Source of the DNA: Phycisphaeraceae bacterium
GTDB lineage: Bacteria > Planctomycetota > Phycisphaerae > Phycisphaerales > Phycisphaeraceae
Assembly: GCA_028277745.1 (NCBI GenBank)
Contig: JANQFR010000068.1
Coordinates: 110,676 to 174,675, forward strand
Direction: 5' to 3'
DNA: 64,000 bases
Shown here piece after piece: positions 1,489 to 43,965 of the stretch. The translations under genes and the position numbers were made by a program. The notes below the pieces were generated by a model. It made no database searches, was not told where the DNA came from, and saw only the letters and a list, made by a program, of their open reading frames with translations. Position 1 is the first letter of the stretch; every line of letters starts with the position of its first letter.

Positions 1489-2853
1489 ATGGCCAAACGG
1501 ACCGTGCAATTCATCTGCCGCTCGTGCGGGGCGGTGCAGGCCCGATGGATGGGCAAATGCCCGGAATGCGGGGCCTGGGACGCCTTGGAGGAGTACGTCG
1601 CCGACAAATCAGCGGCGCTCGACGCGCCCCGCGGCGGGGCGGCGGCCGAGCCGGTCGAGGCGGTCAAACTCCGCGAGATCGACGGCGACGGGGCCGGCCC
1701 CACACGGGTCGCGACCGGCATCGGCGAGTTCGATCGGGTCCTCGGCGGCGGGCTGGTCCCCGGCTCGGCGGTCCTCGTCGGCGGCGATCCGGGCATCGGC
1801 AAGTCCACCCTCCTGCTCCAGGCCGCCCACCGCCTCGCCCACGCCGGCCAACGCGTCCTCTACGTCACCAGCGAGGAGTCCGCCCAGCAGCTGCGGCTCC
1901 GCGCCCAGCGCCTCGCGGAGAACCCGCCCGATGACCTCTACATCCTCGCCGACACCAACCTCGCCCGCATCCTCGAGCAGGCCCGCAAGCTCCAGCCGAC
2001 TGTCTGCGTGATCGACTCGATCCAGATGATCTACAAGGGCGACCTCGCCGCCTCCCCCGGCAGCGTCACCCAGCTCCGGGCGTGCTGCATGGAACTGGTC
2101 TACCACGCCAAGGCCCACGCCGCGGCCATGCTCATGGTCGGCCACGTCACCAAGCAGGGCGCCCTCGCCGGCCCCCGGCTGCTCGAGCACATGGTCGACG
2201 CCGTGCTCTACTTCGAGGGCGACCGCTACCACGCCCACCGCATCGTCCGCGGCATCAAGAACCGGTTCGGCGCCACGCTCGAGGTCGGCCTCTTCGAGAT
2301 GACCGGCGCCGGGCTGCAGGAGGTCGCCGACGGCGCGGGCCTGCTCGCCGCCGAGTACGAAAGCCGCCCCGGCAGCGTGGTCTGCCCGATCCTCAGCGGC
2401 TCCCGCTGCCTCCTGCTCGAAGTCCAGGCCCTGACCGCGACCGGGTTCCTCGGCAGCGTCAAGCGCAAGGTCAGCGGCCTTGACGCGAGCCGGCTGGCGA
2501 TGCTCATCGCCGTGCTCGAGAAGCGGGGCGGGCTCCGCCTGGCCGACCAGGACGTGTTCGCGTCCAGCGTCGGGGGCATGAAGGTCGCCGAGCCCGCCGC
2601 CGACCTGGCCCTCGCCCTCGCGATCGCCGGCGCCCACTACAACCGCTCGGTCGAGCCCGGCGTCGCCGCGGTCGGCGAGATCGGCCTCGGCGGCGAGGTC
2701 CGACGCGCCCAGCAGCTCGACCAGCGCCTCAGCGAAGCCGCCCGCCTCGGCTTCAACCGCGTCATTTGTGCAAACGACCCGGCCAAGCCGCCGAAGAATA
2801 TGCAGTTGATCCAGGTCCGCACCCTCGACCAGGCGCTGCAGGCGATGGGGTGA
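1489..2853 (+). CDS. radA: DNA repair protein RadA/Sms
   Basis: N-terminal C4 zinc finger (CRSCGAVQARWMGKCPECGAW), RecA-like Walker A GDPGIGKSTLLLQ, KNRFG motif and a Lon-protease-like C-terminal domain; 454 aa. Confidence 0.9.
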   Translation: MAKRTVQFICRSCGAVQARWMGKCPECGAWDALEEYVADKSAALDAPRGGAAAEPVEAVKLREIDGDGAGPTRVATGIGEFDRVLGGGLVPGSAVLVGGDPGIGKSTLLLQAAHRLAHAGQRVLYVTSEESAQQLRLRAQRLAENPPDDLYILADTNLARILEQARKLQPTVCVIDSIQMIYKGDLAASPGSVTQLRACCMELVYHAKAHAAAMLMVGHVTKQGALAGPRLLEHMVDAVLYFEGDRYHAHRIVRGIKNRFGATLEVGLFEMTGAGLQEVADGAGLLAAEYESRPGSVVCPILSGSRCLLLEVQALTATGFLGSVKRKVSGLDASRLAMLIAVLEKRGGLRLADQDVFASSVGGMKVAEPAADLALALAIAGAHYNRSVEPGVAAVGEIGLGGEVRRAQQLDQRLSEAARLGFNRVICANDPAKPPKNMQLIQVRTLDQALQAMG

Positions 2854-2856
2854 GGA

Positions 2857-3005
2857 AAAGCAGGAAAGCAGGAAATACAGAAAAGCAGGAAATGCCGAAT
2901 AGCCAGCCATCGCGGGATGTCTCAAGGGCCGACAAACGCCGCCGCATGTCGGCTCGGGCGGTCCTGCTTCTCTTCATTTCCTGCTTTCCTGTTTTCCTGC
3001 TTTTC
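2857..3005. repeat. Imperfect inverted array of AAGCAGG(A)AA octamer repeats (about 4 units on each arm, about 70 bp spacer) spanning radA 3' end and the start of the next gene
   Basis: Left arm aaagcaggaaagcaggaaatacagaaaagcaggaaatg (2857-2894); right arm ttcctgctttcctgttttcctgcttttctgcttttctgc (2967-3005) is its reverse complement. The spacer contains the candidate start codons 2892 and 2949. Confidence 0.6.
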
Positions 3006-4208
3006 TGCTTTTCTGCAGAAGCCCAGCTTCTGCAAGCAGACTGGATCGACGAGAACAACCGGCGCATCGCCGACGCCCGGCAGACGGCCGTCCGGGTGAT
3101 CGTGCTCGATGAGAAGGGCGTCGCCCAGGCCGGCGTCCCCGTGCAGATCCAGCAGATCAGCCGCGACCTGCCCATCGGCTTCACGATCGGCCGCGACGGC
3201 TTCGAGGGCCTCGACCTCGACCAGCCGGTCTGGCGCGTCTTCAACGCCGTGGCGCTCGACCGGGTGACGCGGTGGGCCATCACCCAGCCCACGCCCGACG
3301 TGCGCGAGGACCTCACGCCCGCGATGTGGATCGTCGACGAGGCCCAACGCCGCGGCATGACCGTGCGCTGGGGCGGCATCGTCTCGGCCGACCCCGCCCA
3401 AAACCCCGACTGGCTCCTGGGCCTGACCGACCGCCTGCTCGAACAACTCCTGGACCTGCACGTCGCCGAGGTGCTCGAAGACTTCGGCCCGCGCGTCGGC
3501 CAGTTCGACATCTACACCGACAACCTCAGCCACCGCTTCATCGAGGACCGCCTCGGCCACGCCATGGTGCGCCGGCTGTACGAGCGCTCGAAAGCCATCG
3601 CCCCCCACGCCGCGATGTGCATGCGCTTCAACGACTCGCTCACCGGCCAACGCCTGCCCGCGATGGTCCGGGCCGTCACCGCCATGCGCGAGGACTTCAT
3701 CCCCGCCGACCTGATCGCCATCGAGCAGCGGATCGAGGGCAAGGTTAACCGCACCCCGCTCCGCCGGGCGCTGGAATGGATCGGCCGGCTGGGCATGGGC
3801 GTGGTCCTGGTCGACCTCGAGGTCGGCGGGGGCAGCGATGCGGCCGCCGCGGTCAACCTCGAGACCCTGTTCCGCGTGGTCATGGCCGACCCCAACGTCC
3901 AGGGCGTCTGGATGGGCCCGATACACGCCGGCGACGTGACCGACCCCGCCGCGGCCCTGCTCGACGCCGACGGCAGGCCCACCGCGTTGGGTGAGTTGTT
4001 CGATCGCCTTTTCACCGAGCTGTGGCGGACCGATGAACTGCTCAAGACCGACGAACTGGGCAACGCCCAGACCCCCGTTTTCGCCGGCGCCCATCAGATC
4101 ACCGCACTGCTCCCCGACGGCCGCGCGATCGAGACCACCGTCTGGGTCCCGCGCGACGACGAGGTGCGCGTCATCATCCTCCAGCCCCTCGCGCCCGCTG
4201 CGCGTTGA
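2949..4208 (+). CDS. Secreted putative glycoside hydrolase, distant GH10-like TIM barrel with an N-terminal beta-sandwich module
   Basis: Signal peptide MSARAVLLLFISCFPVFLLFCFSAEA. The N-terminal VRVIVLDEKGVAQAGVPVQIQQ module parallels the GH10-like protein at 10760. Weak GH10-like motifs (FNAVALDRVTRW; VLVDLEV). An alternative start at 2892 would give a long charged N-region. Confidence 0.45.
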   Translation, partial: SARAVLLLFISCFPVFLLFCFSAEAQLLQADWIDENNRRIADARQTAVRVIVLDEKGVAQAGVPVQIQQISRDLPIGFTIGRDGFEGLDLDQPVWRVFNAVALDRVTRWAITQPTPDVREDLTPAMWIVDEAQRRGMTVRWGGIVSADPAQNPDWLLGLTDRLLEQLLDLHVAEVLEDFGPRVGQFDIYTDNLSHRFIEDRLGHAMVRRLYERSKAIAPHAAMCMRFNDSLTGQRLPAMVRAVTAMREDFIPADLIAIEQRIEGKVNRTPLRRALEWIGRLGMGVVLVDLEVGGGSDAAAAVNLETLFRVVMADPNVQGVWMGPIHAGDVTDPAAALLDADGRPTALGELFDRLFTELWRTDELLKTDELGNAQTPVFAGAHQITALLPDGRAIETTVWVPRDDEVRVIILQPLAPAAR

Positions 4209-5041: not shown

Positions 5042-5917
5042 CTATCTCTCACCGCCCCGCGCCCGATAGGCGCGGGGCGGCTGGCCCATGACCTGGCGGA
5101 ACTGGCGGATGAACTGGGCCGGCCCGGCGTACCCGAACTGGTCGGCGATGACGTAGACCGGCAGGTCGGTTTGTTCGAGGAGGACCGCGGCCTCCTCCAG
5201 CCGGCGGCGGTTGAGCCAGACGCGCGGGCAGACGCCGAACGTGATCCGGAACCGCCGGCTGAAATAGTCCGGGCTGAGCATTAACACGTCGGCGAGGTCG
5301 GCGGGCGTCAGGTGGCCCGCGCCATCGGCGCGGACGCGATCGAGCAGCCGGGCCTGCTGGGCGCGCGTGAAACCCCTGGTCGACGCGTCGCCGGGCTGCT
5401 CCCACCGCCACAGGTCAATCGTCAGCCCGACCAGCAGCGCCCGCAGGCGGGCCTCGTGATGCGGCCCGCCGAGTTGAACCTCGTCGGCGATCCGGTCGAG
5501 TGTCCGTTTGTGTTCGCCGCATCCGTGATGCACGCGGGCCCGCCCCGTGAAGCACAGGTGACGGCCCGCCCGGATCACGGCGAAGTACACCTCCGCGAAG
5601 CGGAAGTGATCGGTCCAGCGGAGGCTGTGAGGTGTTCCCGGCGGGACCCAGCTGAGCATGCCGGGCTCGAGCACGACGTCCTCCCCCGCCACGGTTCCGA
5701 CGCTGCGTCCTTCCAGGGCCAGGAGGACCCAGTGGGCGTCGGCGCGTCGCCCCAAGCACGACCAGCCGTCGTCGCGCACGCCCGTGCCGACGCAGCGGCG
5801 GTGGACCCGCACCTCCGCCGCCCCGCCCGCCAGCGCCGCCAGCCACGGCTCGTCGCCCACCAGGCGACGGGGCAGGTGGACGTTCGATAGATCTACGTTT
5901 GGCGCATACATTTTCAC
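5042..5917 (-). CDS. AraC family transcriptional regulator (cupin sensor plus C-terminal HTH)
   Basis: C-terminal AraC-type HTH (LADVLMLSPDYFSRRFRITFGVCPRVWLNRRRLEEAAVLLEQTDLPVYVIADQFGYAGPAQFIRQFRQVMG); divergent from the GRE activase gene. Confidence 0.85.
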   Translation of the reverse strand: MKMYAPNVDLSNVHLPRRLVGDEPWLAALAGGAAEVRVHRRCVGTGVRDDGWSCLGRRADAHWVLLALEGRSVGTVAGEDVVLEPGMLSWVPPGTPHSLRWTDHFRFAEVYFAVIRAGRHLCFTGRARVHHGCGEHKRTLDRIADEVQLGGPHHEARLRALLVGLTIDLWRWEQPGDASTRGFTRAQQARLLDRVRADGAGHLTPADLADVLMLSPDYFSRRFRITFGVCPRVWLNRRRLEEAAVLLEQTDLPVYVIADQFGYAGPAQFIRQFRQVMGQPPRAYRARGGER

Positions 5918-6110
5918 TCCTCGCGCGATTGCCCGGATGGCCTTACATAATCATAATATTACCAGATTTTCCGGACGTTTTGGAGTCTTCGCCCGCCGCT
6001 CATGAGGCCGATGACCGGGCCTTGCCCCCACAATTGGCGCAATTTTCCAAACAGGCCATCCCGCGCCCGGCGCGGCCCGCGCACACCGCGACGCCGCGGC
6101 CGATCCTCAC
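5918..6110. promoter_or_regulatory. Divergent intergenic region between araC-like and the GRE-activase operon, with an AT-rich patch
   Basis: Embedded AT-rich segment ggccttacataatcataatattaccagattttccgg in otherwise 70% GC DNA; candidate divergent promoters and AraC operator. Confidence 0.35.
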
Positions 6111-6884
6111 ATGGACACCACCGAAACCAACCTCACGCTCCGGGTTCAGCGCATTCAACGGTTCTGCCTGCACGACGGGCCGGGCATCCGCACCACGGTG
6201 TTCGCGCAGGGCTGCGGCCTGCGGTGCTGGTGGTGTCACAACCCGCAGACGCATCCGCCGCGCGGCGCCGGCTCGCGCGGCTGGCCGATCGGGGCGTTGG
6301 CCGATGAGCTCGAGCGCGACCGCCGGTTCTTCGACCGCAGCGGCGGCGGGGTGACGCTGTGCGGCGGCGAGCCGCTGCTCCAGCCCGACGCGGCGGCGGC
6401 GCTGCTGGCTGAACTGGGCCGGCGGGGCGTTCACCGCACGATCGACACCGCGGGGCACGCGCCCCGCCGCGCGGTTGAGCAGGCGGCGCCGCACGCGGAC
6501 CTGTGGCTCTGGGACATCAAGCACACGGACGCCGACCGGTTCTTCCGGGGGACCGGCGGCGACGTGCGCCGGCCGCTGGACAACCTTCGCTGGCTGCTGC
6601 GGAATTACGCGACGCCGGTGCGGGTCCGCGTGCCGGTGATCGCGGGCTTCAACGACGACCCCGAAGCGATCTCGGGCATCGGCGATCTCCTCGCGTCGTT
6701 GCCGCGCGCGGTGGAGATGGAATTGCTGCGCGGGCACGACACGGGCCGCGACCCCCAGGCCCGCGGCGCCAGGTCGTCGTGCGTCAGCGACGAGCGGTTT
6801 CACCAGGCCGGCCGGTTGCTAGACGCCATGGGCCTGTCCGTTGGCGGCGTCCCCGCCGCCGCGGCGCCGGACAACAGCTCTTGA
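6111..6884 (+). CDS. Glycyl-radical enzyme activating protein (radical SAM, PflA-like short form)
   Basis: CxxxCxxC cluster motif GCGLRCWWCHNP, SAM-binding LCGGEPLLQ, 257 aa, no extra ferredoxin-like insert; overlaps the next ORF. Confidence 0.85.
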   Translation: MDTTETNLTLRVQRIQRFCLHDGPGIRTTVFAQGCGLRCWWCHNPQTHPPRGAGSRGWPIGALADELERDRRFFDRSGGGVTLCGGEPLLQPDAAAALLAELGRRGVHRTIDTAGHAPRRAVEQAAPHADLWLWDIKHTDADRFFRGTGGDVRRPLDNLRWLLRNYATPVRVRVPVIAGFNDDPEAISGIGDLLASLPRAVEMELLRGHDTGRDPQARGARSSCVSDERFHQAGRLLDAMGLSVGGVPAAAAPDNSS

Positions 6885-6903
6885 AAACAAAAGGAACTCG
6901 ACG

Positions 6904-9102
6904 ATGGTCTCGGCTCCGACCGCTCCGGAAATCTCAATGACCCCGATCCTCCAGGCATCGCAGCAGCGCCTGTTCGGCGCCGCCGACGGCGTGTGCCTCG
7001 AACGCGCCCGGCTCGTGACCGAGGCGTGGCGCCGCGGTGAAAACGACCCCACGCCCGTGAAACGCGCCCAGGCGCTCGCCCACGTGCTTCGCCGCATGAC
7101 CCTGGACGCCGACACCAACCCCGTCTTCGCCGGGGCGATGTCCAGCGGTCCGCGCCGGTGGATGCTGATCCCCGAGCACGGCTTCCAGGTCATGGGGCAG
7201 GTCGAAATCGAGCACGATGACCTGCGCGGCTTCCTCGACGACAAAATCCCCGAAGACCTGCGCGCCTTCTGGGCCGGCCGCAGCGGGCCCGGCGGGATGG
7301 GCCACCTCGCGGTGGATCAGGACATCGTGGTCAACCGGGGCCTGCGGTCGGTGATCGACGAACTGGCGGCGTATGACGACGACCGTGACGCCCGGCGCCG
7401 CGGCTATCGCCGGGCGATGCGGATCGCTCTGGAAGCGGTGATCGACTGGTCGCACCGCTGGGCGGACCGGGCCGCGCAGAGGGCCGAGGCCGAGCGTGAC
7501 CCCGCGGCCGCCGCGTATCACCGGCGGGTGGCCGAGGCGTGCCGGCGGGTCCCGGAACACCCGGCCCGCGACCTGTTCGAGGGGCTGCAGGCGATGGCGC
7601 TGGTTCATTCGGCGATCCACCTGGAGGGGCATCACATGTCGGTGTCGGTCGGGCTGCCCGACCGGGCGTTGGCGCGGTTCGCCGACGAGGCCGCCGCCGA
7701 CCCAAACCGCGCGGCCGACCTGTGCGCCGCCTTCGCGCTGAAACTTGCGGAGAACGCTTACACCGGCAAGGGGTCGCTGACGCAGTGCATCACGATCGGC
7801 GGGGCGGACCATCGCGGCGCCGACCAGACCAACGCCGTGACCCACGCGTTCCTTGAGAGCTTCGACCGCGTCGCGGTGTCGGACCCGCATCTTTTTTTGC
7901 GTTGGCATGAGAACCTGGCGCCGGCGGTGAAAGCGAAAGCCGCGGCCATGCTCGCCCGGGGCCGGAGCATGCCGCTGCTGGTAAACGACGAGCCGACCGC
8001 GGGCGGGCTGCTCGACGCCGGCGTCGCGCCGGCCGACGCCTGGGGCTACTGCGTCATCGGGTGCAACGAGTTGGGCGTCCCGGGCCGGCTTTTTGACTCG
8101 GCCGTGCCGATCGGCTGCTCGTTCAACGACCTGTCGCTTCTCAATCAACTGCTGATGGACGATCAGGACGGCGGTTGTCTGGCGAGCATGGAGGCGTTGG
8201 CCGCGGCGTTGGAGGAGCGATACGCCGCCCACCTCGAGCCGTTGCTGCGGCGGCGGCCAGAGACGAAACAGCGCATCGCGGAGACGTTCCCGACGCCGTT
8301 CACCTCCGCGTTGATGATCGACGGCCCCCGCCGCGGGTGCGACCTGATGGCGGGCATGCCCTACGACATCCCCTGCTGCTACACCCGCGGGCTGGCCAAC
8401 GCCGCCAACGCGCTGGCGGCGATCGAGCGCGTCGTGTTCGAGGACCGGGCGATGACGCCGGCGGCGTTGATCGATGCGCTGCGCGACGATCTGGCCGACC
8501 CGGCGGCCGCCGATCGGCTCGCGGCCGCGCCGAAGTGGGGCAATGATGACGACCGTGCCGACCGCTGGGCTTTGACGTTGACGGCGATGCGGGACCGGGC
8601 CCTGGACCGCCTGGCCGCGGCGGGTCTGCCGCGGCCGGTGGTCTGCCACGTGGTGCGGAGCCTGCATCACGTGGACGGCCGGCGGCTCGCCGCCTCGCCC
8701 GACGGCCGCCGCGCCGGCGAGCCCGTGGGCGACAGCCTCGGGGGTGTCTGCGGCACGATGAAGGAAGGGCCCACGGCGACGCTCGCCAGCGTCCTGAAGC
8801 TCGACGCGCGGCGCCAATTCGCCGGGGGCACGAACCTCAATCTGACGCTCCATGCCGGCCAGGCCGACCCGGTGATCCTGAGCGCATTGATCGAGGGTTT
8901 CTTCGACGGCGGCGGCCAGGAACTTCAGGTCGCGGTGCTTCACGCCGACACGCTGCACGCGGCCCGCGCTTGCCCGCAACGCTTCGCCGACCTGGTCGTG
9001 CGCATCGCCGGGCTCAACGCTCGCTTTATCGAGTTGTCGGCGGCAGAACAGGATGAACTCATCCGCCGGGCCGAAGAAGCCGAAGCAGGAGCTCCCGCTT
9101 GA
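6904..9102 (+). CDS. Glycyl radical enzyme, PFL2/eliminase-type (divergent, 733 aa)
   Basis: PFL2-type N-terminus (LERARLVTEAWRRGENDPTPVKRAQALAHVLRRMTLDADTNPVFAG), active-site loop VIGCNELGVPG (Cys-x-Glu), C-terminal glycine radical domain LVVRIAGLNARFIELSAAEQDELIRR; SD aaggaa 8 nt before ATG 6904. Confidence 0.8.
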   Translation: MVSAPTAPEISMTPILQASQQRLFGAADGVCLERARLVTEAWRRGENDPTPVKRAQALAHVLRRMTLDADTNPVFAGAMSSGPRRWMLIPEHGFQVMGQVEIEHDDLRGFLDDKIPEDLRAFWAGRSGPGGMGHLAVDQDIVVNRGLRSVIDELAAYDDDRDARRRGYRRAMRIALEAVIDWSHRWADRAAQRAEAERDPAAAAYHRRVAEACRRVPEHPARDLFEGLQAMALVHSAIHLEGHHMSVSVGLPDRALARFADEAAADPNRAADLCAAFALKLAENAYTGKGSLTQCITIGGADHRGADQTNAVTHAFLESFDRVAVSDPHLFLRWHENLAPAVKAKAAAMLARGRSMPLLVNDEPTAGGLLDAGVAPADAWGYCVIGCNELGVPGRLFDSAVPIGCSFNDLSLLNQLLMDDQDGGCLASMEALAAALEERYAAHLEPLLRRRPETKQRIAETFPTPFTSALMIDGPRRGCDLMAGMPYDIPCCYTRGLANAANALAAIERVVFEDRAMTPAALIDALRDDLADPAAADRLAAAPKWGNDDDRADRWALTLTAMRDRALDRLAAAGLPRPVVCHVVRSLHHVDGRRLAASPDGRRAGEPVGDSLGGVCGTMKEGPTATLASVLKLDARRQFAGGTNLNLTLHAGQADPVILSALIEGFFDGGGQELQVAVLHADTLHAARACPQRFADLVVRIAGLNARFIELSAAEQDELIRRAEEAEAGAPA

Positions 9103-10580
9103 ACACGCTGCTGATCCTGATGGACTCGTTGAACCGCCACTACCTGCCGGCCTACGGCGGGTCGGTGTGCCGCACGCCCAACATGGACCGGCTCGCCGCA
9201 CGCGGCGTGGTGTTCGACAACCACTGGGCCGGATCGCTGCCGTGCATGCCGGCGCGGCGGGACCTGATGACCGGTCGGCTGAGCTTCCTGGAAACCCCCT
9301 GGTCGCCCATCCAGCCGTGGGACCGGACACTCCCGGCTGAGCTGCGCAAGCAACGCCGCGTCGTCAGCCATCTCATCACCGACCACCACCACTACTTCCA
9401 CTCGGGCGGCGAGGCGTATCACACGCAGTTCGATGCGTGGGAGTTCGAGCGCGGGCAGGAGTGGGACCCGTGGCGGCCGCCTCTGGATAACGGCGCCGAC
9501 AAGCCGGCGCACCTCGGGCAGAACGACCGCTGGCCGACCTATTGGTCCAACCGCCGGGCGATGGACGTCCAGAACGACCTCGACCACCCGACGCCGCGCT
9601 GTTTTCAGCGGGCCATCGAATTCCTCGACCGACTCCCCCGCGCAGCGCCCGACTGGTTCCTGCAACTCGAGGTGTTTGACCCTCACGAGCCGTTCGCCTG
9701 CCCGGACGCGTACCTGCGTGAGTTGGGCGACGATTATGCCGGCCCGTTATGCGACTGGCCGAAATACGGACGCGTCACCGAGCCGCCGGAGATCGTGGAG
9801 CACGTGCGCCGGCGTTACGCGGCGTGCGTGCTCATGGCCGATCGCTGGCTGGGGCGGCTGCTCGATCGGCTCGACGACCTGGGCCTCTGGGAGGACACCC
9901 GCGTCATCCTCACCACGGACCACGGGCACCTGCTGGGCGAGGGCGGATGGTGGGGCAAGAACACGATGCGCGACCGGGCCGAGCTGCTGAACATCCCCCT
10001 GGTGGTCGCCGGCGGGGGCGCGCCCCGGGGCGAGCGCCGCGCCGGGCTGACCACCACCATCGACCTGATGCCGACGATCTGCCGCAACCACGGCGCCGAG
10101 CCGCCCGACATCGTCCGCGGCCGCGCCTTGCAGCCCCTGATCGAGAACGATGGGCCGCATCATGACGCGGTCCTCAGCGGTTACTTCGATAAAGACGTGA
10201 ACCTCACCGACGGCCGGTTTCTGTACCACCGGCAGCCCGCCGACGGGGCCGCGGTTTACGAACACACGCTGATGCCTCGCCGGTACAGGGGGTTCGTCAA
10301 GCCGGAGCAACTCGCGTCGGCCGAGTTTGGCTGCTTCCTGCCGCACGCGGGCGACACGCCCCAGATGCGGATCATGCATCGTTCCCGAAGACATGAGCGC
10401 GAGCCCGATGCGCCCTACGCCTCGGACGATCACCCGGTGTTTGACTTGATCGATGATCCTGAGCAACGGCGCCCGGTGAACGACCCGGCGGTGGAAACCC
10501 GCTTGGCGACACAAATGGCGGAACTGCTGGAACGCTGTGGTGCCCCCCCCAGCCAGGCTGACCGGCTGGGTTTCGGTTGA
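9099..10580 (+). CDS. Formylglycine-dependent sulfatase (type I, Cys-type), no signal peptide
   Basis: Sulfatase signature C-x-P-x-R (SLPCMPARRDLMTGR) plus metal-binding N-terminus LLILMDSLN. TTG start at 9099 overlaps the GRE stop (alternative ATG at 9120). Confidence 0.85.
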   Translation: MNTLLILMDSLNRHYLPAYGGSVCRTPNMDRLAARGVVFDNHWAGSLPCMPARRDLMTGRLSFLETPWSPIQPWDRTLPAELRKQRRVVSHLITDHHHYFHSGGEAYHTQFDAWEFERGQEWDPWRPPLDNGADKPAHLGQNDRWPTYWSNRRAMDVQNDLDHPTPRCFQRAIEFLDRLPRAAPDWFLQLEVFDPHEPFACPDAYLRELGDDYAGPLCDWPKYGRVTEPPEIVEHVRRRYAACVLMADRWLGRLLDRLDDLGLWEDTRVILTTDHGHLLGEGGWWGKNTMRDRAELLNIPLVVAGGGAPRGERRAGLTTTIDLMPTICRNHGAEPPDIVRGRALQPLIENDGPHHDAVLSGYFDKDVNLTDGRFLYHRQPADGAAVYEHTLMPRRYRGFVKPEQLASAEFGCFLPHAGDTPQMRIMHRSRRHEREPDAPYASDDHPVFDLIDDPEQRRPVNDPAVETRLATQMAELLERCGAPPSQADRLGFG

Positions 10581-10667
10581 TGAGCGGATTAACCATCGAA
10601 GACAGGGGTATGAGGGAGCGACCGCATGGGAATCGTTGAAAGAAATGGTCCCATCGATTCTGTGATG

Positions 10668-10747
10668 AAGCCGGACCTGAGCGGAGCGAAGGTCCGGATC
10701 GAATGGGTGAAAATCATCCGGACCTTCGCTCCGCTCAGGTCCGGCTT
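10668..10747. repeat. Repeat family A: 80-bp palindromic element (two inverted 33-bp units AAGCCGGACCTGAGCGNAGCGAAGGTCCGGAT), copy 1
   Basis: Perfect inverted arms 10668-10700 and 10715-10747; each unit is itself a hairpin (CCGGACCT...AGGTCCGG). Other copies are at 12169-12202 and 29895-29975. Confidence 0.7.
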
Positions 10748-10759
10748 CTCACGCAAGAC

Positions 10760-12151
10760 ATGAAGGATACTGCTTTCATGAGAACTGGATCAATATCGTT
10801 TGGTTGTCTATGTTGGATCATCATGAGCCTGCTCCCTGCCGCATCGTCGCATAGCGCTGAGATTCAAAAAGCGTATCCGGGCCGGGAAGCCGACGCGGCC
10901 TGGCGCAGTCAGGCCCGGCAACGGATCGCACAGCACCGCCAAGGCGAAATGACCGTGCAGGTTTTCGACGCCAATGGACAGCCCGCGCCCAACGTCCCGG
11001 TCCGTGTCGAACAGACCCGCCACGCCTTCGGCTTCGGGACGGCGGTCGGCTGCTACGCTTTTCAGCGAGCCGATGAGAAGGGCGAGAGCTACCGCCGGCT
11101 CATCAAGGACGTTTTCCGGTTCAACGAGATCGTGTTCGAAAACGACATGAAGCCCACCATATGGCGAGCCTACGCGACCGGCGAAGACCCCAAACGCCGA
11201 TGGGAAAACGTTCAGGCGACGCTGGACCACTTCAATCAACAGCAGATCCCCGTGCGCGGCCACTTCCTGCTGCACGGCATGCTCCGCTACGGCAGCCCGA
11301 GATGGGGGGTGAACGACCTCGCGGATTTCGACCGCGACCCACGCGCCCTCGAGGAGCGGCTCGTCGCCGAAGCCGCCGAGCGGGCCGCGTTCATCGGCGA
11401 TCGGGTGGTGGAATGGGACGCGCTCAACCACGTGGTCGGCTGGGGCAGGGACATCAACTGGATCAATCGCACAGGCGACCCCGCCTACGGCGTGAACATG
11501 CTCAAGGCCATGCGCCGAGCCGTCCCCGAAACGGTTGCGCTTTACCTGAACGAAGGCCACATCCTCTCGAACCGTGGGCGTCGCGCAGATCGTTACTTCG
11601 AGGCGGCCAAGGCGTTGCTCGACGCCGGCGCCCCGCTCGACGGGGTGGGCTTCATGGGCCACTTCGCGGTGCACGAAGAGACCGGCGACGTCGGCCGTCT
11701 GACGCCGCCCGCGATGCAGTACGACATCATCGACCGCTTCGCCGCACTCGGCCTCAAGCTCAAGATCACCGAGCTGGACGTGGACGCCGGCGATGACGAC
11801 CAGCTCCAGGCCGACTTCCTCCGCGACACGATGATCGCGGCGTTCAGCCACCCGGCCATGGAGTCCATCGTGATGTGGGGCTTCTGGGAGGGCAAGCACT
11901 GGCGCAAGCGGGCCGCCCTCGCCCGTCGCGACGGCTCGATGAAGCCCGCCGGCGAGGCCTGGATCGACTTGGTTTACAACCAGTGGTGGACCGATCAGAC
12001 CGTCATGACGGACGACCATGGCATGGTTTTGTTGCCCGCGTTTTATGGGCGGTACAACGTGAGCGCGGTCGTCGACGGCCAGCCCGTCAAGGTGTCGATC
12101 ACCCATACCGCCCAGGAGCCGGCGTCGGCCCAACTCCGCCCGGGGTCGTGA
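10760..12151 (+). CDS. Secreted glycoside hydrolase family 10-like protein (endo-1,4-beta-xylanase fold)
   Basis: Signal peptide, then GH10 motifs FNEIVFENDMKPTIW, RGHFLLHG, LKLKITELDV (nucleophile) and VMWGFWE. The acid/base region reads WDALNH rather than WDVVNE. Start at 10760 or 10778. Confidence 0.75.
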   Translation: MKDTAFMRTGSISFGCLCWIIMSLLPAASSHSAEIQKAYPGREADAAWRSQARQRIAQHRQGEMTVQVFDANGQPAPNVPVRVEQTRHAFGFGTAVGCYAFQRADEKGESYRRLIKDVFRFNEIVFENDMKPTIWRAYATGEDPKRRWENVQATLDHFNQQQIPVRGHFLLHGMLRYGSPRWGVNDLADFDRDPRALEERLVAEAAERAAFIGDRVVEWDALNHVVGWGRDINWINRTGDPAYGVNMLKAMRRAVPETVALYLNEGHILSNRGRRADRYFEAAKALLDAGAPLDGVGFMGHFAVHEETGDVGRLTPPAMQYDIIDRFAALGLKLKITELDVDAGDDDQLQADFLRDTMIAAFSHPAMESIVMWGFWEGKHWRKRAALARRDGSMKPAGEAWIDLVYNQWWTDQTVMTDDHGMVLLPAFYGRYNVSAVVDGQPVKVSITHTAQEPASAQLRPGS

Positions 12152-12168: not shown

Positions 12169-12240
12169 CAAGCCGGACCTGAGCGAAGCGAAGGTCCGGA
12201 TAGATTTCACCGACCGGGGCCCGCGTCCGCATGCGGGGCT
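12169..12240. repeat. Half-copy of repeat A plus palindrome D (CCGCATGCGGGGCTTA) between convergent genes
   Basis: caagccggacctgagcgaagcgaaggtccggata (12169-12202), then gtccgcatgcggggctta (12225-12242), which is shared with 51203-51226. Confidence 0.5.
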
Positions 12241-12250
12241 TAGCAGCGGT

Positions 12251-15217
12251 TCAATCCGTTCCGCCCGGTTTGGGCTTGACCACCTCGACCCAGTGCTTCG
12301 CCTTGACGTTCAGGAAATCGTGCAACTGATGGCGGCAGGAGATGCCGCAGGCGATGACGGTCGCGTCGCGCTCGGCCGCTTGGCGCACGGCGGGGAAGAG
12401 GCGGTCTTCGCCGACTTTGCGCGAGACGTCGTAATGTTCGTAGCCGAACGACCCGGCCATGCCGCAGCAGCCGGCGCCGGCTTCTTCGCAATGGGTGTTT
12501 TCCATTTTGGCGAAGGCGTTTTCCATGGATCGCGTGCCGAAGAGGGCTTTCTGGTGGCAGTGGCCGTGCAGGAGGATGTCGGCGTGGTCGGAGGTGAGTT
12601 CGACGCCTTGTTCTTCAAGGAAAACGTCGATCATACGCACCTGGTCGGCCACGCGCTGGCCCATCTTGGCGTCATCCATCAGATCGGGCAGGTCGTCAAT
12701 TAAGGCGGAGGCGCAACTGGGTTCGAGGCAGACAATCGGCAGGTCCTGCTTGGCGTAAACATCGAGGTTCTGCATGGTCTTCGTGCCGTCGCGCTTGGCG
12801 TCCTTGACCAGGCCCTTGGACATGCGGGGGCGTTGGCAGCAGCCGGCGTCGGCGAGGAGGACCTCGTAGCCGCAGCCCTCGAGCAGGTCGACTGCGGCGA
12901 CGCCGACGTGCGGCTCCATGTAGCTGGCGTAGGTGTCGTTGAAGAGCACGACCCTGCCCCGCGGGGCGTCCTGGGGCTTGGTCCTGCCGCGCAGCCGGGC
13001 CTTGAGCGGCCGGGTGGCGAAGGCGGGGATCGGCCGGCGGCGGTCGATGCCGGCGATCTTTTCCATAAAGAAGCCGTACCCCGGCAGCCGGGCCATCGCG
13101 TTGGTCAGATGTGCTAGCGGTCCCGCCAGTCGCCTGGCCTGGATGGGCATCTCGCCCATGAGCTTGTAGCCGAGGGGCACACCGTGCTGGTCGTGGCGCA
13201 TCTGGAGGGTGTCGGACTTGAGCTTGGCCATGTCGACGGCGTTGGGGCACTCGCTCTTGCACGCCTTGCAGGCGAGGCAGAGGGCCATGACGCCGTCCTG
13301 GAGCTCCTGGGAGGCGAGGGCGTCGTCGCCGAGCTGGCCGGACATGGCGAGGCGCAGGGCGTTGGCGCGGCCGCGGGTGGTGGCGGACTCGTCGCGGGTG
13401 GCCATGTAGGACGGGCACATCGTGCCGTCGCCGAGTTTGCGGCAGGCGCCCACACCGTTGCACTGCTCGACCGCCAGCGCGAAACCGCCCTGGTCGCGGT
13501 ATTGATAGTTCGAGGCGACCTCGGCGATCCGCTGGGAATAGCCTTCCTGCTGATAACGGAGATTAGCGGTCATCGCGGGAGCGTCGACGACCTTGCCGGG
13601 GTTCATGAGGTTGTCGGGGTCGAAGATGGCCTTGACCTCACGGAAGGCGTGGTAGAGCGTGTCGCCGAACATGCGGGGGAGGAACTGGCCGCGGAGCTGG
13701 CCGTCGCCGTGCTCGCCGGACCACGAGCCGCCGTATTCCATGACCCAGGTGAACGCCTGTTCGGCGATGGCGGCCATTTTCTCGACGTCCTCGGGCTCGT
13801 GCAGGTCGAGGGAGGGGGCGATATGGATGACGCCGACGGAAGCATGGGCGTACTTGGAGACGCGGATGACGCCCATCGAGGCGCAGAGGTCCATGATCTT
13901 GCCGACGTACTCGGCGAGCTTGTCGGTGGGGACGCAGGCGTCTTCGATGAAGTCGCGTCCCTTGACCTTGCCTTTGACGTTGGTGATCAGGCCGAGGCCG
14001 AGCTTGCGGGTGTTCCAGATGTCGGCCTGGTTCTTCGCGTCGCCGAACACGGGCCAGGCGTAGCCGATCTTTCGGTCCTTCATGTCCCGGGCGAAGGCTT
14101 CGGCCCGGTGTTGGGCTTGGTCGGGGGCGTCGCCCATGAACTCGACGATCTGCACGGCCTTGGGCCAGCCGGCGATGAAGTGGGCCATGTGTTTGGTGGC
14201 GGCGTTGACGCGGGCCTCGTCCATGACGACGTCGTCGAGCAGCTCGACGGTGGACGGGCCGTGGTCGAGCATGGCGTCGACCGCGCTCAGCGCGTCGAGC
14301 AGTTGGTTGAAGTGGACGACGCAGACGGCGGTGGCCTTGGGCAGGGGGACGAGCCGGACCTTGGCTTCGAGGAGGACGCCGAGGGTGCCTTCTGAGCCGA
14401 CGATGAGGTTGGCGAGGTTCCAGGCGCGACGGCCCTGATTGTGTTCGCGTCGGGGGCCGATGGGCCCGGTGTAGCCGGCGCCGTCGACGAACTCGTCGAG
14501 GTTGTAGCCCGAGACGCGGCGCATCACCTTCGGGTAGCGGTCGCGGATCTCGTCCTGATGGCGGAGGATGATGTCTTTGACGCCGCGGTAGATGCGGGCC
14601 TCGGCGGACTCGCCCTGGGCCTTGTGTTGCCACTGCTCGTCGTCGACGGGGCCGCACTCGAGGACCGTGCCGTCGGCGAGGGCGACGCGGCAGGAGATGA
14701 CCTGATCGATGGTTTTGCCGTAGACGATGGAGCGGGTGCCGGAGGTGTTGTTGCCGAGCATGCCGCCGACGGTGGCGCGGTTGCCGGTGGCGGGGTCGGG
14801 GGTGAAGTGCAGGCCCAGGGGCTTGAGCTGCTGATTGATGCGGTCGCGCACGGCGCCGGGCTGGACGCGCATCCATTGCTCGTCTTCGTTGATCTCGACG
14901 ATCTGGTCCATGTACTTGGAGCAGTCGAGGATGAGGCCCGTGCCGAAGGTCTGTCCGGAGAGGGAGGTGGCGCCGCCCCGGGCGGTGATGGGCAGGCGGT
15001 GTTGGTGGGCGACGCGGATGGCGGCGACGCAGTCGGCCTCATCGCGGGGGACGACGACGCAGGTGGGCATGACCTGGTAATGCGAGGCGTCGGTGGCGTG
15101 GATGCCGCGGGAGATCGGGTCGAAGCTGACCTCGCCGCGGACGGCGGCGCGGAGTTGCGATTCAAGGTCGGGGGAGGGCGTCATGCGGGGCGGGGCGTCC
15201 GTAGCAGGCGTGGTCAT
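12251..15217 (-). CDS. FAD-binding oxidase fused to 4Fe-4S and CCG domains (YdiJ/GlcD-GlcF-like 2-hydroxyacid dehydrogenase)
   Basis: PCMH-type FAD domain (ARGGATSLSGQ), two ferredoxin motifs (CNGVGACRK...CPSY; CLACKACKSECP) and two C-terminal CCG cysteine-rich motifs (CCQRP, CCGMAGSFGYE); 988 aa. Confidence 0.8.
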   Translation of the reverse strand: MTTPATDAPPRMTPSPDLESQLRAAVRGEVSFDPISRGIHATDASHYQVMPTCVVVPRDEADCVAAIRVAHQHRLPITARGGATSLSGQTFGTGLILDCSKYMDQIVEINEDEQWMRVQPGAVRDRINQQLKPLGLHFTPDPATGNRATVGGMLGNNTSGTRSIVYGKTIDQVISCRVALADGTVLECGPVDDEQWQHKAQGESAEARIYRGVKDIILRHQDEIRDRYPKVMRRVSGYNLDEFVDGAGYTGPIGPRREHNQGRRAWNLANLIVGSEGTLGVLLEAKVRLVPLPKATAVCVVHFNQLLDALSAVDAMLDHGPSTVELLDDVVMDEARVNAATKHMAHFIAGWPKAVQIVEFMGDAPDQAQHRAEAFARDMKDRKIGYAWPVFGDAKNQADIWNTRKLGLGLITNVKGKVKGRDFIEDACVPTDKLAEYVGKIMDLCASMGVIRVSKYAHASVGVIHIAPSLDLHEPEDVEKMAAIAEQAFTWVMEYGGSWSGEHGDGQLRGQFLPRMFGDTLYHAFREVKAIFDPDNLMNPGKVVDAPAMTANLRYQQEGYSQRIAEVASNYQYRDQGGFALAVEQCNGVGACRKLGDGTMCPSYMATRDESATTRGRANALRLAMSGQLGDDALASQELQDGVMALCLACKACKSECPNAVDMAKLKSDTLQMRHDQHGVPLGYKLMGEMPIQARRLAGPLAHLTNAMARLPGYGFFMEKIAGIDRRRPIPAFATRPLKARLRGRTKPQDAPRGRVVLFNDTYASYMEPHVGVAAVDLLEGCGYEVLLADAGCCQRPRMSKGLVKDAKRDGTKTMQNLDVYAKQDLPIVCLEPSCASALIDDLPDLMDDAKMGQRVADQVRMIDVFLEEQGVELTSDHADILLHGHCHQKALFGTRSMENAFAKMENTHCEEAGAGCCGMAGSFGYEHYDVSRKVGEDRLFPAVRQAAERDATVIACGISCRHQLHDFLNVKAKHWVEVVKPKPGGTD

Positions 15218-20903: not shown

Positions 20904-22412
20904 ATGCGTGTCCTGCTGGTGCATCCGAGCCCGCTGCTGTACTCCGAGGTCTACCTCCGGCTGGAGCCGCTGGGCATGGAATGCGTGGGCGCCGCGCTGC
21001 TCGCGGCCGGCCATGACGTGCGGCTGATCGACCTGCAGGTCTTCAAACGCCCGGACCTGGAGCGGGAGCTGGCTCGGTTCCGGCCCCAGGCCGTGGGCTT
21101 CTCTGTCAACTACCTCGCCAATGTGCCCGAGGTGATCGACCTGGCTAAGCTCATCAAGCAGCGGCTGCCCGGCGCGTTCGTGTTCTGCGGCGGGCACAGC
21201 ATCTCGTTCATCACCGAAGAGGTGATCGCCCACGGCGACGGCGCGATCGACGCGATCGTCACCGGCGAGGGCGAGACCACCACGCCGATGATGCTGGAGC
21301 AGGCGCCGGACGTCGACGGGCTGCCCGGCGTCGCCACCGCCCGCGGCAAGGGGCCGCGCCCCACGCTGCAGACCGACATCAACGCCATCCGCCCCGCCCG
21401 CCACCTGACCCGGCGGCGGCGGCGGTACTTCATCGGCGAACTCGACCCCTGCGCCTCGATCGAGTTTTCCCGCGGCTGCCCGTGGGACTGCTCGTTCTGC
21501 TCCGCGTGGACCTTCTACGGCCGCAGCTACCGCCTGGCCGACCCCGCCGTCATTGGCGACGAGCTGCAGGCGATCCGCGAGCCCAACTGCTTCATCGTCG
21601 ACGACGTCGCGTTCGTCCACCCCGAACACGGCATGGCCATCGCCGACGAGATCGAGAAACGCGGCATCAAAAAACGCTACTACCTCGAAACGCGCTGCGA
21701 CGTCTTGATCCGCAATCGCGAGGTCTTCGCCCGCTGGGCGAAGCTCGGGCTGTGCTACATGTTCCTCGGCCTCGAGTCGCTCGACGCCGACCAGCTCAAG
21801 CTCTTCCGCAAGCGGGTGACGCCGAACCAGAACTTCGAGGCCCTCGAGATCGCGCGCGAGCTGGGGATCGAGGTGGCGATCAACCTCATCACCGACCCGT
21901 CGTGGGACGAGGAGAAGTTCACGGCGGCCCGCGAGTGGGCGACCCGGGTGCCCGAGATCGTCCACCTGACCGTCGCCACGCCGTACCCCGGCACCGAGCT
22001 GTTCCACACCGACCGCCGCCGGCTGACGACCGACGATTACCGCCTGTTCGACATCCAGCACGCGGTGACGCCCACGAAGCTGCCGCTGCGCGAGTTCTAC
22101 GCGCAGCTGGTCGAGACCCAGTCGATCATCAACCGCAAGTTCATGGGCTGGAAGACGGCGGTCGACGTCTCGCGGATCCTGGCCGGGCAACTGGCCCGCG
22201 GCCAGACCAACTTCCTGCGGATGTTGTTCAAGTTCGCTTCGGTCTACAACGTCGACCGCTTCCACGGCGACCACGACAAGCCGGTCGTCTACGGCATGCG
22301 CAAGCCCGAGGACTATCCCGTCAAGCCCACCCCCGATGACCTGATGGTTCACGTGAAGGTGTCGACCGGGAAACGCCGCGAGTCGGCCGAAGTGGCGTCG
22401 TCGTCGGTGTGA
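20904..22412 (+). CDS. B12-binding domain radical SAM protein (class B, HpnJ-like)
   Basis: N-terminal cobalamin-binding Rossmann-like domain, radical SAM CxxxCxxC (GCPWDCSFC), 502 aa. Confidence 0.8.
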   Translation: MRVLLVHPSPLLYSEVYLRLEPLGMECVGAALLAAGHDVRLIDLQVFKRPDLERELARFRPQAVGFSVNYLANVPEVIDLAKLIKQRLPGAFVFCGGHSISFITEEVIAHGDGAIDAIVTGEGETTTPMMLEQAPDVDGLPGVATARGKGPRPTLQTDINAIRPARHLTRRRRRYFIGELDPCASIEFSRGCPWDCSFCSAWTFYGRSYRLADPAVIGDELQAIREPNCFIVDDVAFVHPEHGMAIADEIEKRGIKKRYYLETRCDVLIRNREVFARWAKLGLCYMFLGLESLDADQLKLFRKRVTPNQNFEALEIARELGIEVAINLITDPSWDEEKFTAAREWATRVPEIVHLTVATPYPGTELFHTDRRRLTTDDYRLFDIQHAVTPTKLPLREFYAQLVETQSIINRKFMGWKTAVDVSRILAGQLARGQTNFLRMLFKFASVYNVDRFHGDHDKPVVYGMRKPEDYPVKPTPDDLMVHVKVSTGKRRESAEVASSSV

Positions 22413-29894: not shown

Positions 29895-29975
29895 AAAGCC
29901 GGACCTGAGCGCAGCGAAGGTCCGGATGAGTTGTTTCGACCGTATCCGGACCTTCGCTGCGCTCAGGTCCGGCTT
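29895..29975. repeat. Repeat family A, copy 3 (full palindromic element)
   Basis: aaagccggacctgagcgcagcgaaggtccggat (29895-29927) and its inverted partner atccggaccttcgctgcgctcaggtccggctt (29944-29975). Confidence 0.7.
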
Positions 29976-42855: not shown

Positions 42856-43965
42856 TCACCCCACCAGGACCGGCAGCCGCCGTCGCCCCCACTGGCCCGC
42901 CTCGCGTTCGAAGACGCCCGGCAGCGTCCGACCGCACTTCGGGCAGCCGCCGCGTTCGAGCGCAAAGCGGCCGATCGCGTAGCGGTTGCGTTCGATGAGC
43001 AACTCGCCGCACGCGGCGCAGCGCGTGCTTTCACGCCCGGGGTCGTAAACATTGCCGACGTAAACGTGATGCAGCCCAGCGTCGATCGCGATGTCGCGCG
43101 CATCGACCAGCGTTCGATGGGGCGTGGGAGGATGGTCCAGCATCTTGTAGTCGGGGTGGAAAGCCGTGAAGTGAAGCGGGACATCCGGGCCCAGGTGCTC
43201 GACGATCCAATCGCACATGCGGCGCGTTTCATCAGGGTCGTCGTTTTCGCCGGGGATGACGAGGGTGGTGATTTCAAACCAGACCGGGGTTTCACGTTTC
43301 AGGTAGACCAGCGTGTCGAGCACCGGCTGAAGCGAGGTCTGGGTCAGCTTGCGATAGAAGGCTTGGTTAAACGCCTTGAGGTCCACATTGGCGGCGTCCA
43401 TGTGCGCAAAAAATTCGCGGCGGGGCTCGGGGTCGATATAGCCCGCGGTCACCGCGACGGTCCGGACGCCGTGCTCCCGGGCGGTCCGGGCGATGTCGAT
43501 CGCGTACTCGGCCCATATCACCGGGTCGTTGTACGTAAACGCGATCGAGCGGCAGCCGTGTTCCAACGCCGCCCGCACAATGGCCTGGGGCGACGCCTCC
43601 CCGGCGAGCGTGTCCATCTGCCGTGACTTGGAGATGTCGTGGTTCTGGCAGAACTTGCAGCCGAGATTGCAGCCCGCGGTCCCCAGCGAAAGCACGGCCG
43701 TGCCGGGCAGGAAATGATTGAGCGGTTTCTTCTCGATCGGGTCGATGCAGAACCCGGAACTGCGCCCATACGTAGTAAGGATCAGACGCCCATCGACGTT
43801 GGCCCGCACGAAGCAGAAGCCGCGCGAACCGTCGGGGATGCGGCAATGCCTCGGGCACAACGTGCAGACCACTTTCCCGGTTTGCGGGTCGCGATGCCAC
43901 CAGCGGGTGGTGTCGGTCACGGTGGGCCTCCGCGTTTGGGTTGCTCGGCTGCCTTTATTTTCCAT
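42856..43965 (-). CDS. amrS: AmmeMemoRadiSam system radical SAM enzyme
   Basis: TTRWW...CTLCPRHCRIPDGSRGFCFVR N-terminal module and radical SAM GCNLGCKFCQN; 369 aa. No AMMECR1 or Memo partner genes nearby. Confidence 0.85.
   Translation of the reverse strand: MENKGSRATQTRRPTVTDTTRWWHRDPQTGKVVCTLCPRHCRIPDGSRGFCFVRANVDGRLILTTYGRSSGFCIDPIEKKPLNHFLPGTAVLSLGTAGCNLGCKFCQNHDISKSRQMDTLAGEASPQAIVRAALEHGCRSIAFTYNDPVIWAEYAIDIARTAREHGVRTVAVTAGYIDPEPRREFFAHMDAANVDLKAFNQAFYRKLTQTSLQPVLDTLVYLKRETPVWFEITTLVIPGENDDPDETRRMCDWIVEHLGPDVPLHFTAFHPDYKMLDHPPTPHRTLVDARDIAIDAGLHHVYVGNVYDPGRESTRCAACGELLIERNRYAIGRFALERGGCPKCGRTLPGVFEREAGQWGRRRLPVLVG

Follow-up and report, generated by a model that had tools for sequence, protein, structure and literature searches.

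The DNA analysed here is a 64,000-nucleotide stretch (hereafter the window) of contig JANQFR010000068.1 from a Phycisphaeraceae bacterium, in which an earlier note made from the letters and their open reading frames (ORFs) had singled out a gene cluster built around a glycyl radical enzyme (GRE). Region 5042–10580 holds four genes with strong family matches, and Pfam and NCBIfam searches bore out the placement of all of them: an AraC-family regulator (5042–5917, reverse strand, 291 aa) and, reading away from it on the forward strand, a GRE-activating radical S-adenosylmethionine (SAM) enzyme (6111–6884, 257 aa), the GRE itself (6904–9102) and a sulfatase (9099–10580, 493 aa). The last three form a genuine operon. 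The GRE starts at ATG 6904 and not, as first annotated, at 6901, which gives a protein of 732 aa (78.9 kDa) instead of 733; residue numbers below count from ATG 6904. Most homologues have their first residue at the counterpart of Met12 (ATG 6937), a start that would make the protein ~721 aa long.

The regulator shows the AraC/XylS pattern of a double helix-turn-helix (HTH) with an N-terminal cupin (PF12833, HTH_18, 1.2e-19; HTH_AraC, AraC_binding_2 and Cupin_2 were also matched). Its orthologues, at 43–51% identity, occupy the same divergent position in related loci (L004 and L032/L081), so that the arrangement described in the earlier note is one that relatives share. It is from this conserved position that we infer AraC control of the operon. 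The 193-bp intergenic region between the divergent genes (5918–6110) carries one candidate sigma-70-like site on the forward strand (TTGCCC-17-CATAAT, 5929–5957), which is weak evidence, as one such site was found against 0.5 expected from shuffled sequence.

At the other end of the operon, the sulfatase begins at TTG 9099, the first possible start in its ORF, which shares two bases with the GRE stop codon (TTGA) and aligns exactly with Met1 of the homologues (MNTILLLIDSLNRH...). A Shine-Dalgarno sequence, AGGAG, lies within the 3' end of the GRE gene at 9087–9091, with a 7-nt spacer before the TTG. Taken together, these features indicate a leaderless sulfatase whose translation is very probably coupled to that of the GRE, much as had been proposed from the overlap itself. 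Beyond the 3' end of the sulfatase gene, a perfect inverted repeat of the repetitive extragenic palindromic (REP) kind (10667–10748; 33-nt arms, 16-nt loop; RNA fold −106.7 kcal/mol, z = −9.8) probably marks where the operon ends. Copies related to it occur at 12173–12199 and 29899–29972 (29899/29946), and copies of the palindrome thus bracket the next gene, which encodes a GH10-like hydrolase (10760–12151, forward strand; PF00331, 5.8e-30). The mechanically called start of that gene, ATG 10703, falls inside the hairpin loop, which makes ATG 10760 (MKDTAF..., followed by a signal peptide) the likelier start. A second GH10-like gene lies upstream of the cluster (2766–4208) and is a paralogue of the first at the protein level (23% identity, E 5e-14). 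This 480-aa ORF has no Pfam or NCBIfam match of its own, and an internal Met followed by a signal peptide places its real start probably near 2946. The GH10-like hydrolases noted as flanking the cluster are therefore both present; however, both bear signal peptides and are secreted enzymes in separate transcription units. Since the palindrome stands between the sulfatase and the downstream gene, we treat them as neighbours and not as operon members.

The sulfatase is an S1 enzyme of the Cys (formylglycine) type, with a PF00884 match at 6.7e-34, the CxPxR motif (CMPAR) at residues 49–53 and TTDHG at residue 272. CMPAR is kept in 114 of 120 homologues and sits at 0-based offset 48 (residue 49) in 94 of the 120 and within one residue of it in most others, from which it follows that the homologues are leaderless too. 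There is no space for a signal peptide, and by its sequence the enzyme is predicted to be cytoplasmic. Its best PDB matches are cytoplasmic alkaline-phosphatase-superfamily sulfatases and phosphonate monoester hydrolases, which are likewise leaderless and carry CxPxR, although the scores are only 91 (4UPL), 84 (2W8S) and 81 (2VQR) bits. The choline sulfatase model (106 bits against a cut-off of 433) and PehA (117 against 900) do not account for it either, and it falls within a large ~490-aa "MDSLNRH...CMPAR" family of its own. We considered and rejected the idea of a GRE-specific sulfatase subfamily, because the closest homologues occur in loci that lack a GRE.

The GRE has the two parts expected of its superfamily, a PFL-like barrel (PF02901, 1e-77) and a C-terminal glycyl radical domain (PF01228, 1.8e-11). 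The Cys loop that had been read as GCNE was located at residues 386–389 (8059–8070), where Cys387 would carry the thiyl radical and Glu389 would act as general base. All 120 members of a family alignment have Gly703, Arg700, Cys387, Glu389, His134, Ser246 and Asp253 unchanged; Asn388 is kept in 119 of them, and position 398 is acidic (Asp/Glu) in 106. In a HMMER alignment with glycerol dehydratase, Cys387 and Glu389 align with Cys433 and Glu435, His134 with His164 (presumably the proton donor to the leaving hydroxyl), Ser246 with Ser282 and Asp398 with Asp447, with His134 and Ser246 present in 120 of 120 homologues. AlphaFold2, supplied with 33 homologues, modelled the protein as a complete GRE barrel (mean pLDDT 92, pTM 0.93), which Foldseek superposes on glycerol dehydratase, propanediol dehydratase and CutC with a TM-score of 0.86 over ~800 columns. 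The intact catalytic set, the full barrel and the adjacent cognate activase make this look like a functional enzyme.

Two other accounts of the gene can be weighed on the same evidence. Its shortness relative to most GREs, together with a Leu in place of the aromatic residue after the radical glycine, might point to a pseudo-GRE or a truncated fragment of a longer PFL-family protein. The protein is indeed short, as the earlier note stressed, but GREs of ~720–750 aa exist elsewhere, and what sets it apart from GREs of 780–850 aa is the loss of internal and N-terminal loops. Compared with YbiW, PflD or glycerol dehydratase, 50–100 residues have gone in this way, most of them from the N-terminal third. 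Neither the radical glycine nor the catalytic cysteine is missing from any of the 120 homologues, family length is uniform across phyla at ~718–730 aa, and the barrel is modelled confidently and in full, so that we reject a degenerate or fragmentary gene as next to inconceivable. Public names such as "pyruvate formate lyase family protein" and "formate C-acetyltransferase", along with the Pfam PFL-like domain match, would suggest instead a pyruvate or 2-ketoacid formate-lyase. The active site speaks otherwise, since an adjacent Cys-Cys pair on the Cys loop is peculiar to pyruvate formate-lyase (PFL) and TdcE (PMC13450708), and this enzyme has a single Cys followed by x-Glu. With TIGR01255 the score is 50.5 bits where the cut-off stands at 994, the sequence shares 19% identity with E. 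coli PflB, and a PFL function, rejected here, is highly improbable.

The glycyl radical loop (R700-I-A-G703-L704, 9001–9015) aligns with the RVAGY of glycerol dehydratase and propanediol dehydratase. Against the published GRE fingerprint RVxG[FWY]x6-8[FL]x4Qx2[IV]x2R (PMC13450708), the enzyme reads R-I-A-G-L-NARFIE-L-SAAE-Q-DE-L-IR-R: the Gly, both Arg, the Gln and the [FL] position fit, while Leu at [FWY], Ile at V and Leu at [IV] deviate. Among the 120 family members, 85 have Phe and 35 have Leu at position 704, and none has Tyr; the Leu variants form a Phycisphaerae-type subclade that includes the window GRE. Unrelated GRE representatives often carry RVAGF or RVSGF, so the contrast with a near-universal G-Y, on which the earlier note had remarked, is smaller than it appeared, even though Leu does lie outside the fingerprint. 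By its alignment, Leu704 reads as a conservative, lineage-specific change.

The activase carries CX3CX2C at residues 35–42 and matches TIGR02494 at 201 bits (cut-off 174), as a cognate radical SAM activase would. That match comes in two stretches which leave out model positions ~41–107, the insert that holds the auxiliary clusters. The CxxCxxCxxxC motif was found in none of 11 family activases, as against all eight activases of a sister GRE family described below (two motifs each). The activase gene also lies upstream of the GRE in the window family, an order seen in the window and conserved in its relatives, and downstream in the sister family. The only radical-SAM-only activases recognised to date are PFL-AE and class III RNR-AE, the activating enzymes of PFL and of the anaerobic ribonucleotide reductase (PMC13450708). 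The window activase shares with PflA, the PFL-activating enzyme, a length of ~250 aa and a domain set without auxiliary clusters. In sequence, however, it scores 145 bits against TIGR02493 (cut-off 232) and so stands nearer to the ferredoxin-bearing activases (TIGR02494, 201 bits), and it serves a GRE of the Cys-x-Glu (CxE) type, not PFL. The ferredoxin domain thus looks secondarily lost, and the family activase appears to be a further, independently derived radical-SAM-only case.

To place the GRE we used a word-indexed search of 5.8 billion proteins and an exhaustive HMMER scan of 1.84 billion representatives at 50% identity. The former returned more than 120 homologue clusters at 49–69% identity, nearly all of 705–767 aa; the latter returned ~11 full-length representatives above 500 bits, followed by a fall from ~520 to 355 bits at 34% identity. 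Among GTDB species genomes, all hits were in metagenome-assembled genomes, with hosts in Phycisphaerae/Planctomycetota, Lentisphaerae/Victivallales, Kiritimatiellota, Armatimonadota, Anaerolineae/Chloroflexia, Poribacteria, Hydrogenedentota, Sumerlaeota and Brocadiia. The top NCBIfam model, TIGR01774 of the PFL2/glycerol dehydratase subfamily, reached 285.6 bits against a cut-off of 678.2, and the equivalogs for CutC, HypD, HpsG, HpfG, PflD and the indoleacetate and 4-hydroxyphenylacetate (HPA) decarboxylases reached 99–221 bits against cut-offs of 1000–1150. PDB sequence and fold searches put the enzyme at roughly equal distance (22–26% identity) from glycerol dehydratase, propanediol dehydratase, CutC, PflD/YbiW, HypD, IslA/IseG/HpsG and benzylsuccinate synthase. 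In a neighbour-joining tree of 135 GREs, computed without support values, the window family is monophyletic and its sister is a second family of ~750–800 aa at 27–31% identity; both lie apart from the large GCVE/GCIE group that holds YbiW and PflD. A full-text literature search found no paper on the GRE family, the sister family or any GRE-sulfatase system. A 2026 review from the Drennan group counts, among eliminases, six for C-O, one for C-N and three for C-S bonds, besides three isomerases; the word "sulfatase" is absent from it, and "sulfate" occurs only for sulfate-reducing strains in the reference list (PMC13450708). The GRE therefore belongs to a discrete, widespread and uncharacterised GCNE clade, which accords with the view in the earlier note that its subfamily had no assignment, and which is recognisable by G-C-N-E, by a CHVVRSLHH strand (C581 to H589 in the window GRE, 8644–8670), by G-[F/L] at the radical glycine and by an activase without a ferredoxin domain.

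Comparison with characterised enzymes indicates what kind of reaction to expect. The best PDB matches are the glycerol dehydratase of C. butyricum (1R8W/1R9D) and 1,2-propanediol dehydratase (5I2A, 9RCO), at 206 and 203 bits and a TM-score of 0.86. These enzymes have in common with the window GRE the CxE Cys loop, the equivalents of His164, Ser282 and Asp447, and activation by a radical SAM enzyme. They differ from it in that identity is 24–26%, the window GRE is ~55–110 aa shorter and has Asn where they have Val in G-C-x-E, its activase lacks the ferredoxin domain, and no bacterial microcompartment (BMC) context is present. BMC shell families were absent from the scanned genes of the window and from the top 25 neighbour families of 284 neighbouring genes, so the locus does not have the make-up of a GRE-associated microcompartment (GRM). 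YbiW and PflD, the C-O-cleaving isomerases of 1,5-anhydroglucitol- and 1,5-anhydromannitol-6-phosphate, are likewise GREs of the CxE type, with substrates derived from sugars and products that pass to an aldolase (PMC13450708), and the His of their GxGH motif is conserved here. Identity to them is 27%, though; the PRK09983 model gives 203 bits against a cut-off of 1109, GCNE stands against GCIE/GCVE, and no phosphotransferase system (PTS) or aldolase occurs within the window. IslA, IseG and HpsG, the sulfite-lyases of isethionate and dihydroxypropanesulfonate (DHPS), are CxE eliminases of anionic sulfur substrates with Arg anchors, one of which would lie on the strand of Arg585; in these C-S lyases two Arg and one Gln anchor the sulfonate (PMC13450708). 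They share 22–24% identity with the window GRE, which matches the HpsG and HpfG models at 206 and 221 bits (cut-off 1000), and they cleave the C-S bond of sulfonates, not sulfate esters.

The sister family, examined in 13 loci (L067–L075 and L077–L080; for example L072 2517–13553 and L070 8001–14244), has GCNE, CHVVRS and RVAGF in common with the window family. Sulfatase is the top Pfam family among its neighbours (12 of 80), which also include ROK kinase, Gfo/Idh/MocA, a xylose-isomerase-like TIM barrel, DeoC aldolase and GntR/UTRA. With their ROK kinase and DeoC aldolase these loci recall the "radical glycolysis" logic of YbiW/PflD (PMC13450708) and, by that analogy, look like a sulfated-sugar pathway in which a GRE works ahead of an aldolase.

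All characterised GRE 1,2-eliminases and isomerases have the CxE Cys loop, with the Glu hydrogen-bonded to a substrate hydroxyl (PMC13450708). With C387-N-E389, and the Glu present in 120 of 120 homologues, the window GRE looks to be of this eliminase/isomerase type. From the conserved residues we infer the type of reaction, the order of its steps and the class of substrate as follows. The activase would install the radical on Gly703, from where it would move to Cys387; the thiyl radical would abstract a hydrogen from the carbinol carbon of the substrate, and Glu389 would deprotonate the hydroxyl to give a ketyl radical. A vicinal C-O substituent (OH or OR) would then depart with acid help from His134 and Asp398, and the product radical would regain its hydrogen from Cys387, as in the B12-independent glycerol/propanediol dehydratases and YbiW/PflD. 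Retention of the His134-Asp398 acid pair points to a poor leaving group (OH or OR), and hence to the chemistry of a dehydratase or an ether-cleaving enzyme. Most likely the substrate is a hydroxy compound of small size that derives from carbohydrate, although these active-site assignments come from sequence alignment at ~25% identity, which counts against pressing the scheme too far.

The pocket gives one further hint. Tyr339 of glycerol dehydratase is replaced by Thr293, inside a conserved S-K-T-Q, and the C, H, R, S, L and H of CHVVRSLHH, a motif common to the sister family, are unchanged in 119–120 of 120 homologues. By ungapped extrapolation, this strand would correspond to the barrel strand on which glycerol dehydratase has Tyr640 and HpsG/IslA have the Arg that anchors the sulfonate. 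Cys581, Val583 and Arg585 would sit on one face of it, with Arg585 on the strand equivalent to that of HpsG Arg672 but 4 residues off its position. The invariance of Arg585, His582 and His588 suggests a substrate that may be anionic or strongly polar. It could also mean that the GRE itself eliminates sulfate, with a ketyl radical formed beside a C-O-SO3 group giving a deoxy-keto product while the sulfatase serves other positions. Sulfate is by our reckoning a chemically excellent leaving group for a ketyl mechanism, the invariant residues would lie on the very strand of the sulfonate-anchoring Arg (PMC13450708), both the family and its sister are sulfatase-associated, and TauE/SafE exporters occur in two loci. 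We nonetheless hold sulfate elimination to be quite unlikely: the acid pair, which expulsion of a poor leaving group such as OH requires, is strictly conserved, the match between the strands is an extrapolation, most loci have no sulfur-related context, and an enzyme of this kind is not known, the review covering only C-O, C-N and C-S (sulfonate) eliminases (PMC13450708).

Whether the sulfatase belongs to the same pathway was approached through the neighbourhoods of relatives, in which neighbour ORFs of fetched loci were called heuristically (length and GC at third codon positions, GC3), so that shadow ORFs diluted the counts and some activases were missed. Sulfatase was the commonest Pfam family beside the GRE, at 11 of 109 genes at ±1 and 5 of 95 at ±2 (64 loci). 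Within the same loci, sulfatase density was 0.74 per 10 kb up to 1.5 kb from the GRE and 0.18 at 1.5–7.5 kb (12 sulfatases in 161 kb vs. 8 in 450 kb), a roughly fourfold difference (binomial p = 0.0015), and a functional link of the GRE family to sulfatases thus has statistical support. At least four sulfatase types adjoin family GREs, in several phyla, which points to several independent recruitments. The leaderless MDSLNRH/CMP[AC]R type occurs beside the GRE in Anaerolineae, Chloroflexia, Planctomycetaceae and Phycisphaeraceae as well as in the window; the others comprise two further leaderless types and enzymes exported by twin-arginine translocation (TAT), some of them fused to HEAT repeats.

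On this basis, we propose that the operon encodes a C-O-cleaving GRE of the CxE type that would act on a small carbohydrate-derived hydroxy compound, which in this genome the co-translated cytoplasmic sulfatase would free from an imported sulfate ester, under AraC control. We put the chances of this proposal at about even, since a number of observations pull the other way. A nearby sulfatase is found in only ~20–25% of family loci, about three-quarters having none in the fetched flank, and in the closest GRE relatives (69%, 63% and 63% identity) AraC, activase and GRE are joined by a PhyH dioxygenase and no sulfatase is present; conserved GRE-sulfatase synteny, when looked for across the family, was therefore rejected as a family trait. 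The enrichment test takes related loci as independent, the approximately seven Anaerolineae/Chloroflexia loci probably represent one or two events, and the lineages of the clade are sulfatase-rich, which makes adjacency by mere chance more frequent. Several of the adjacent sulfatases elsewhere are TAT-exported and would work in a compartment other than that of the GRE. The nearest homologues of the window sulfatase (55–57% identity) lie in multi-sulfatase and ABC-transporter loci without a GRE. Neither an anaerobic sulfatase-maturating enzyme (anSME) nor a formylglycine-generating enzyme (FGE) was found in the 64-kb window, where the radical SAM genes other than the activase encode HpnR, RlmN and AmmeMemoRadiSam; HpnR (hopanoid C-3 methylase, 20904–22412, 786 bits, cut-off 650) and AmmeMemoRadiSam (42856–43965, 588 bits) are not sulfatase maturases.

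The same observations raise the question of whether the adjacency is incidental. On that view the GRE would be a stand-alone eliminase for a diol or polyol of the common fermentation type, for example glycerol, an anhydro- or deoxy-sugar, or the 1,2-propanediol that fucose and rhamnose yield, and the sulfatase would be just another gene for sulfated glycans that happened to settle beside it. Sulfatase-free loci make up ~75% of the family and include the closest relatives, and the nearest homologues of the sulfatase likewise live in GRE-free loci. Besides this, the glycerol dehydratase catalytic set is conserved, genes for zinc-dependent alcohol dehydrogenases (Zn-ADHs) recur nearby, and a GH95 fucosidase lies directly upstream in one locus. 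We consider such a role possible but doubtful, because the stop/start overlap with its internal Shine-Dalgarno sequence argues for selected co-expression, sulfatase outnumbers every other neighbour family and has its highest density right at the GRE, and different phyla have recruited different sulfatase types. The pocket, moreover, is unlike that of diol dehydratases (Tyr339 replaced by Thr293, and the Tyr640 strand by CHVVRSLHH), and BMC shell genes are missing from the top neighbour families. The cytoplasmic anaerobic pathway on a desulfated sugar that the earlier note had envisaged gains from the CxE GRE, the cytoplasmic sulfatase and the sulfatase enrichment; dehydration of the desulfated sugar stays conjectural. 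A bolder version would make the GCNE clade and its sister a new GRE class for anaerobic sulfated-glycan catabolism in uncultured members of the Planctomycetes-Verrucomicrobia-Chlamydiae (PVC) group, Chloroflexota and Armatimonadota, acting by direct sulfate elimination, in which a vicinal hydroxy sulfate ester would be desulfated by radical and not by hydrolytic means, or by C-O cleavage of a desulfated sugar in the manner of YbiW/PflD, and served by a third kind of radical-SAM-only activase; we think this unlikely.

Other genes that recur around family GREs are related to carbohydrates. In other loci they include GH95, GH32, GH4, GH43/BNR, a melibiase-like protein, a CE15 glucuronoyl esterase, a GguC/AraD1-family protein, URO-D/MtaA-like proteins, Zn-ADHs and sugar ABC transporters. 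The PhyH-family Fe(II)/2-oxoglutarate dioxygenase lies directly upstream of the activase in four loci of the closest relatives (L081 8353–9249, L001 5957–6826, L004 1762–2622 and L063 5072–5950), where an O2-dependent enzyme shares what appears to be the same operon with an O2-sensitive GRE. It has no close characterised homologue, its best PDB match being EvdO2 at 47 bits. One speculative link is that the sulfatase and the PhyH hydroxylase of close relatives would both create the free hydroxyl that a ketyl-radical mechanism requires. The URO-D-fold protein, distantly MtaA/CmuA-like (42–46 bits), accounts for 8 of 204 neighbour genes of family GREs (for instance L051 13932–15026, L083 16554–17627, L094 17117–18193 and L045 6733–7818) and in Anaerolineae often stands alongside the CE15 glucuronoyl esterase and the GguC/AraD1-family protein. 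An 810–840-aa fusion of an ABC permease (BPD_transp_1) to an NHL/SGL beta-propeller lies beside the GRE in two distant loci (L093 11309–13831 and L094 2583–5015), adjoining a substrate-binding protein (SBP) and a von Willebrand factor A (VWA) protein.

Elsewhere in the window, a gene on the reverse strand that is convergent with the downstream GH10-like gene (12251–15217) encodes a 988-aa YdiJ-like FAD/Fe-S oxidase fused to a GlpC-like domain, which matches the D-2-hydroxyglutarate dehydrogenase model at 559 bits (cut-off 1350). The stretch that holds a 1768-aa ORF (53990–59296, reverse strand) has less GC at third codon positions than the remainder of the window. No RNA genes turned up when the 64 kb were scanned with Rfam and for tRNAs.

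GREs carry out, without oxygen, reactions that are difficult by other means, and with every clade assigned so far, among them CutC, HypD, IslA and YbiW/PflD, a new pathway has come to light. What we describe is not a categorically new system but a member of an unstudied GRE clade with a distinctive active site and activase and a recurrent, non-universal association with sulfatases. The clade has clear sequence signatures, comprises at least 120 clusters at 90% identity and is confined to uncultured polysaccharide-degrading phyla of sediments and other anoxic habitats. Its ferredoxin-less activase bears on the role of auxiliary clusters in GRE activases. The compact operon of activase, GRE and coupled sulfatase is a good target for enzyme discovery and a ready expression construct for finding the substrate, and, to judge by how the clade is repeatedly paired with sulfatases, the turnover of sulfated organic matter would include an anaerobic step that has so far gone unrecognised.

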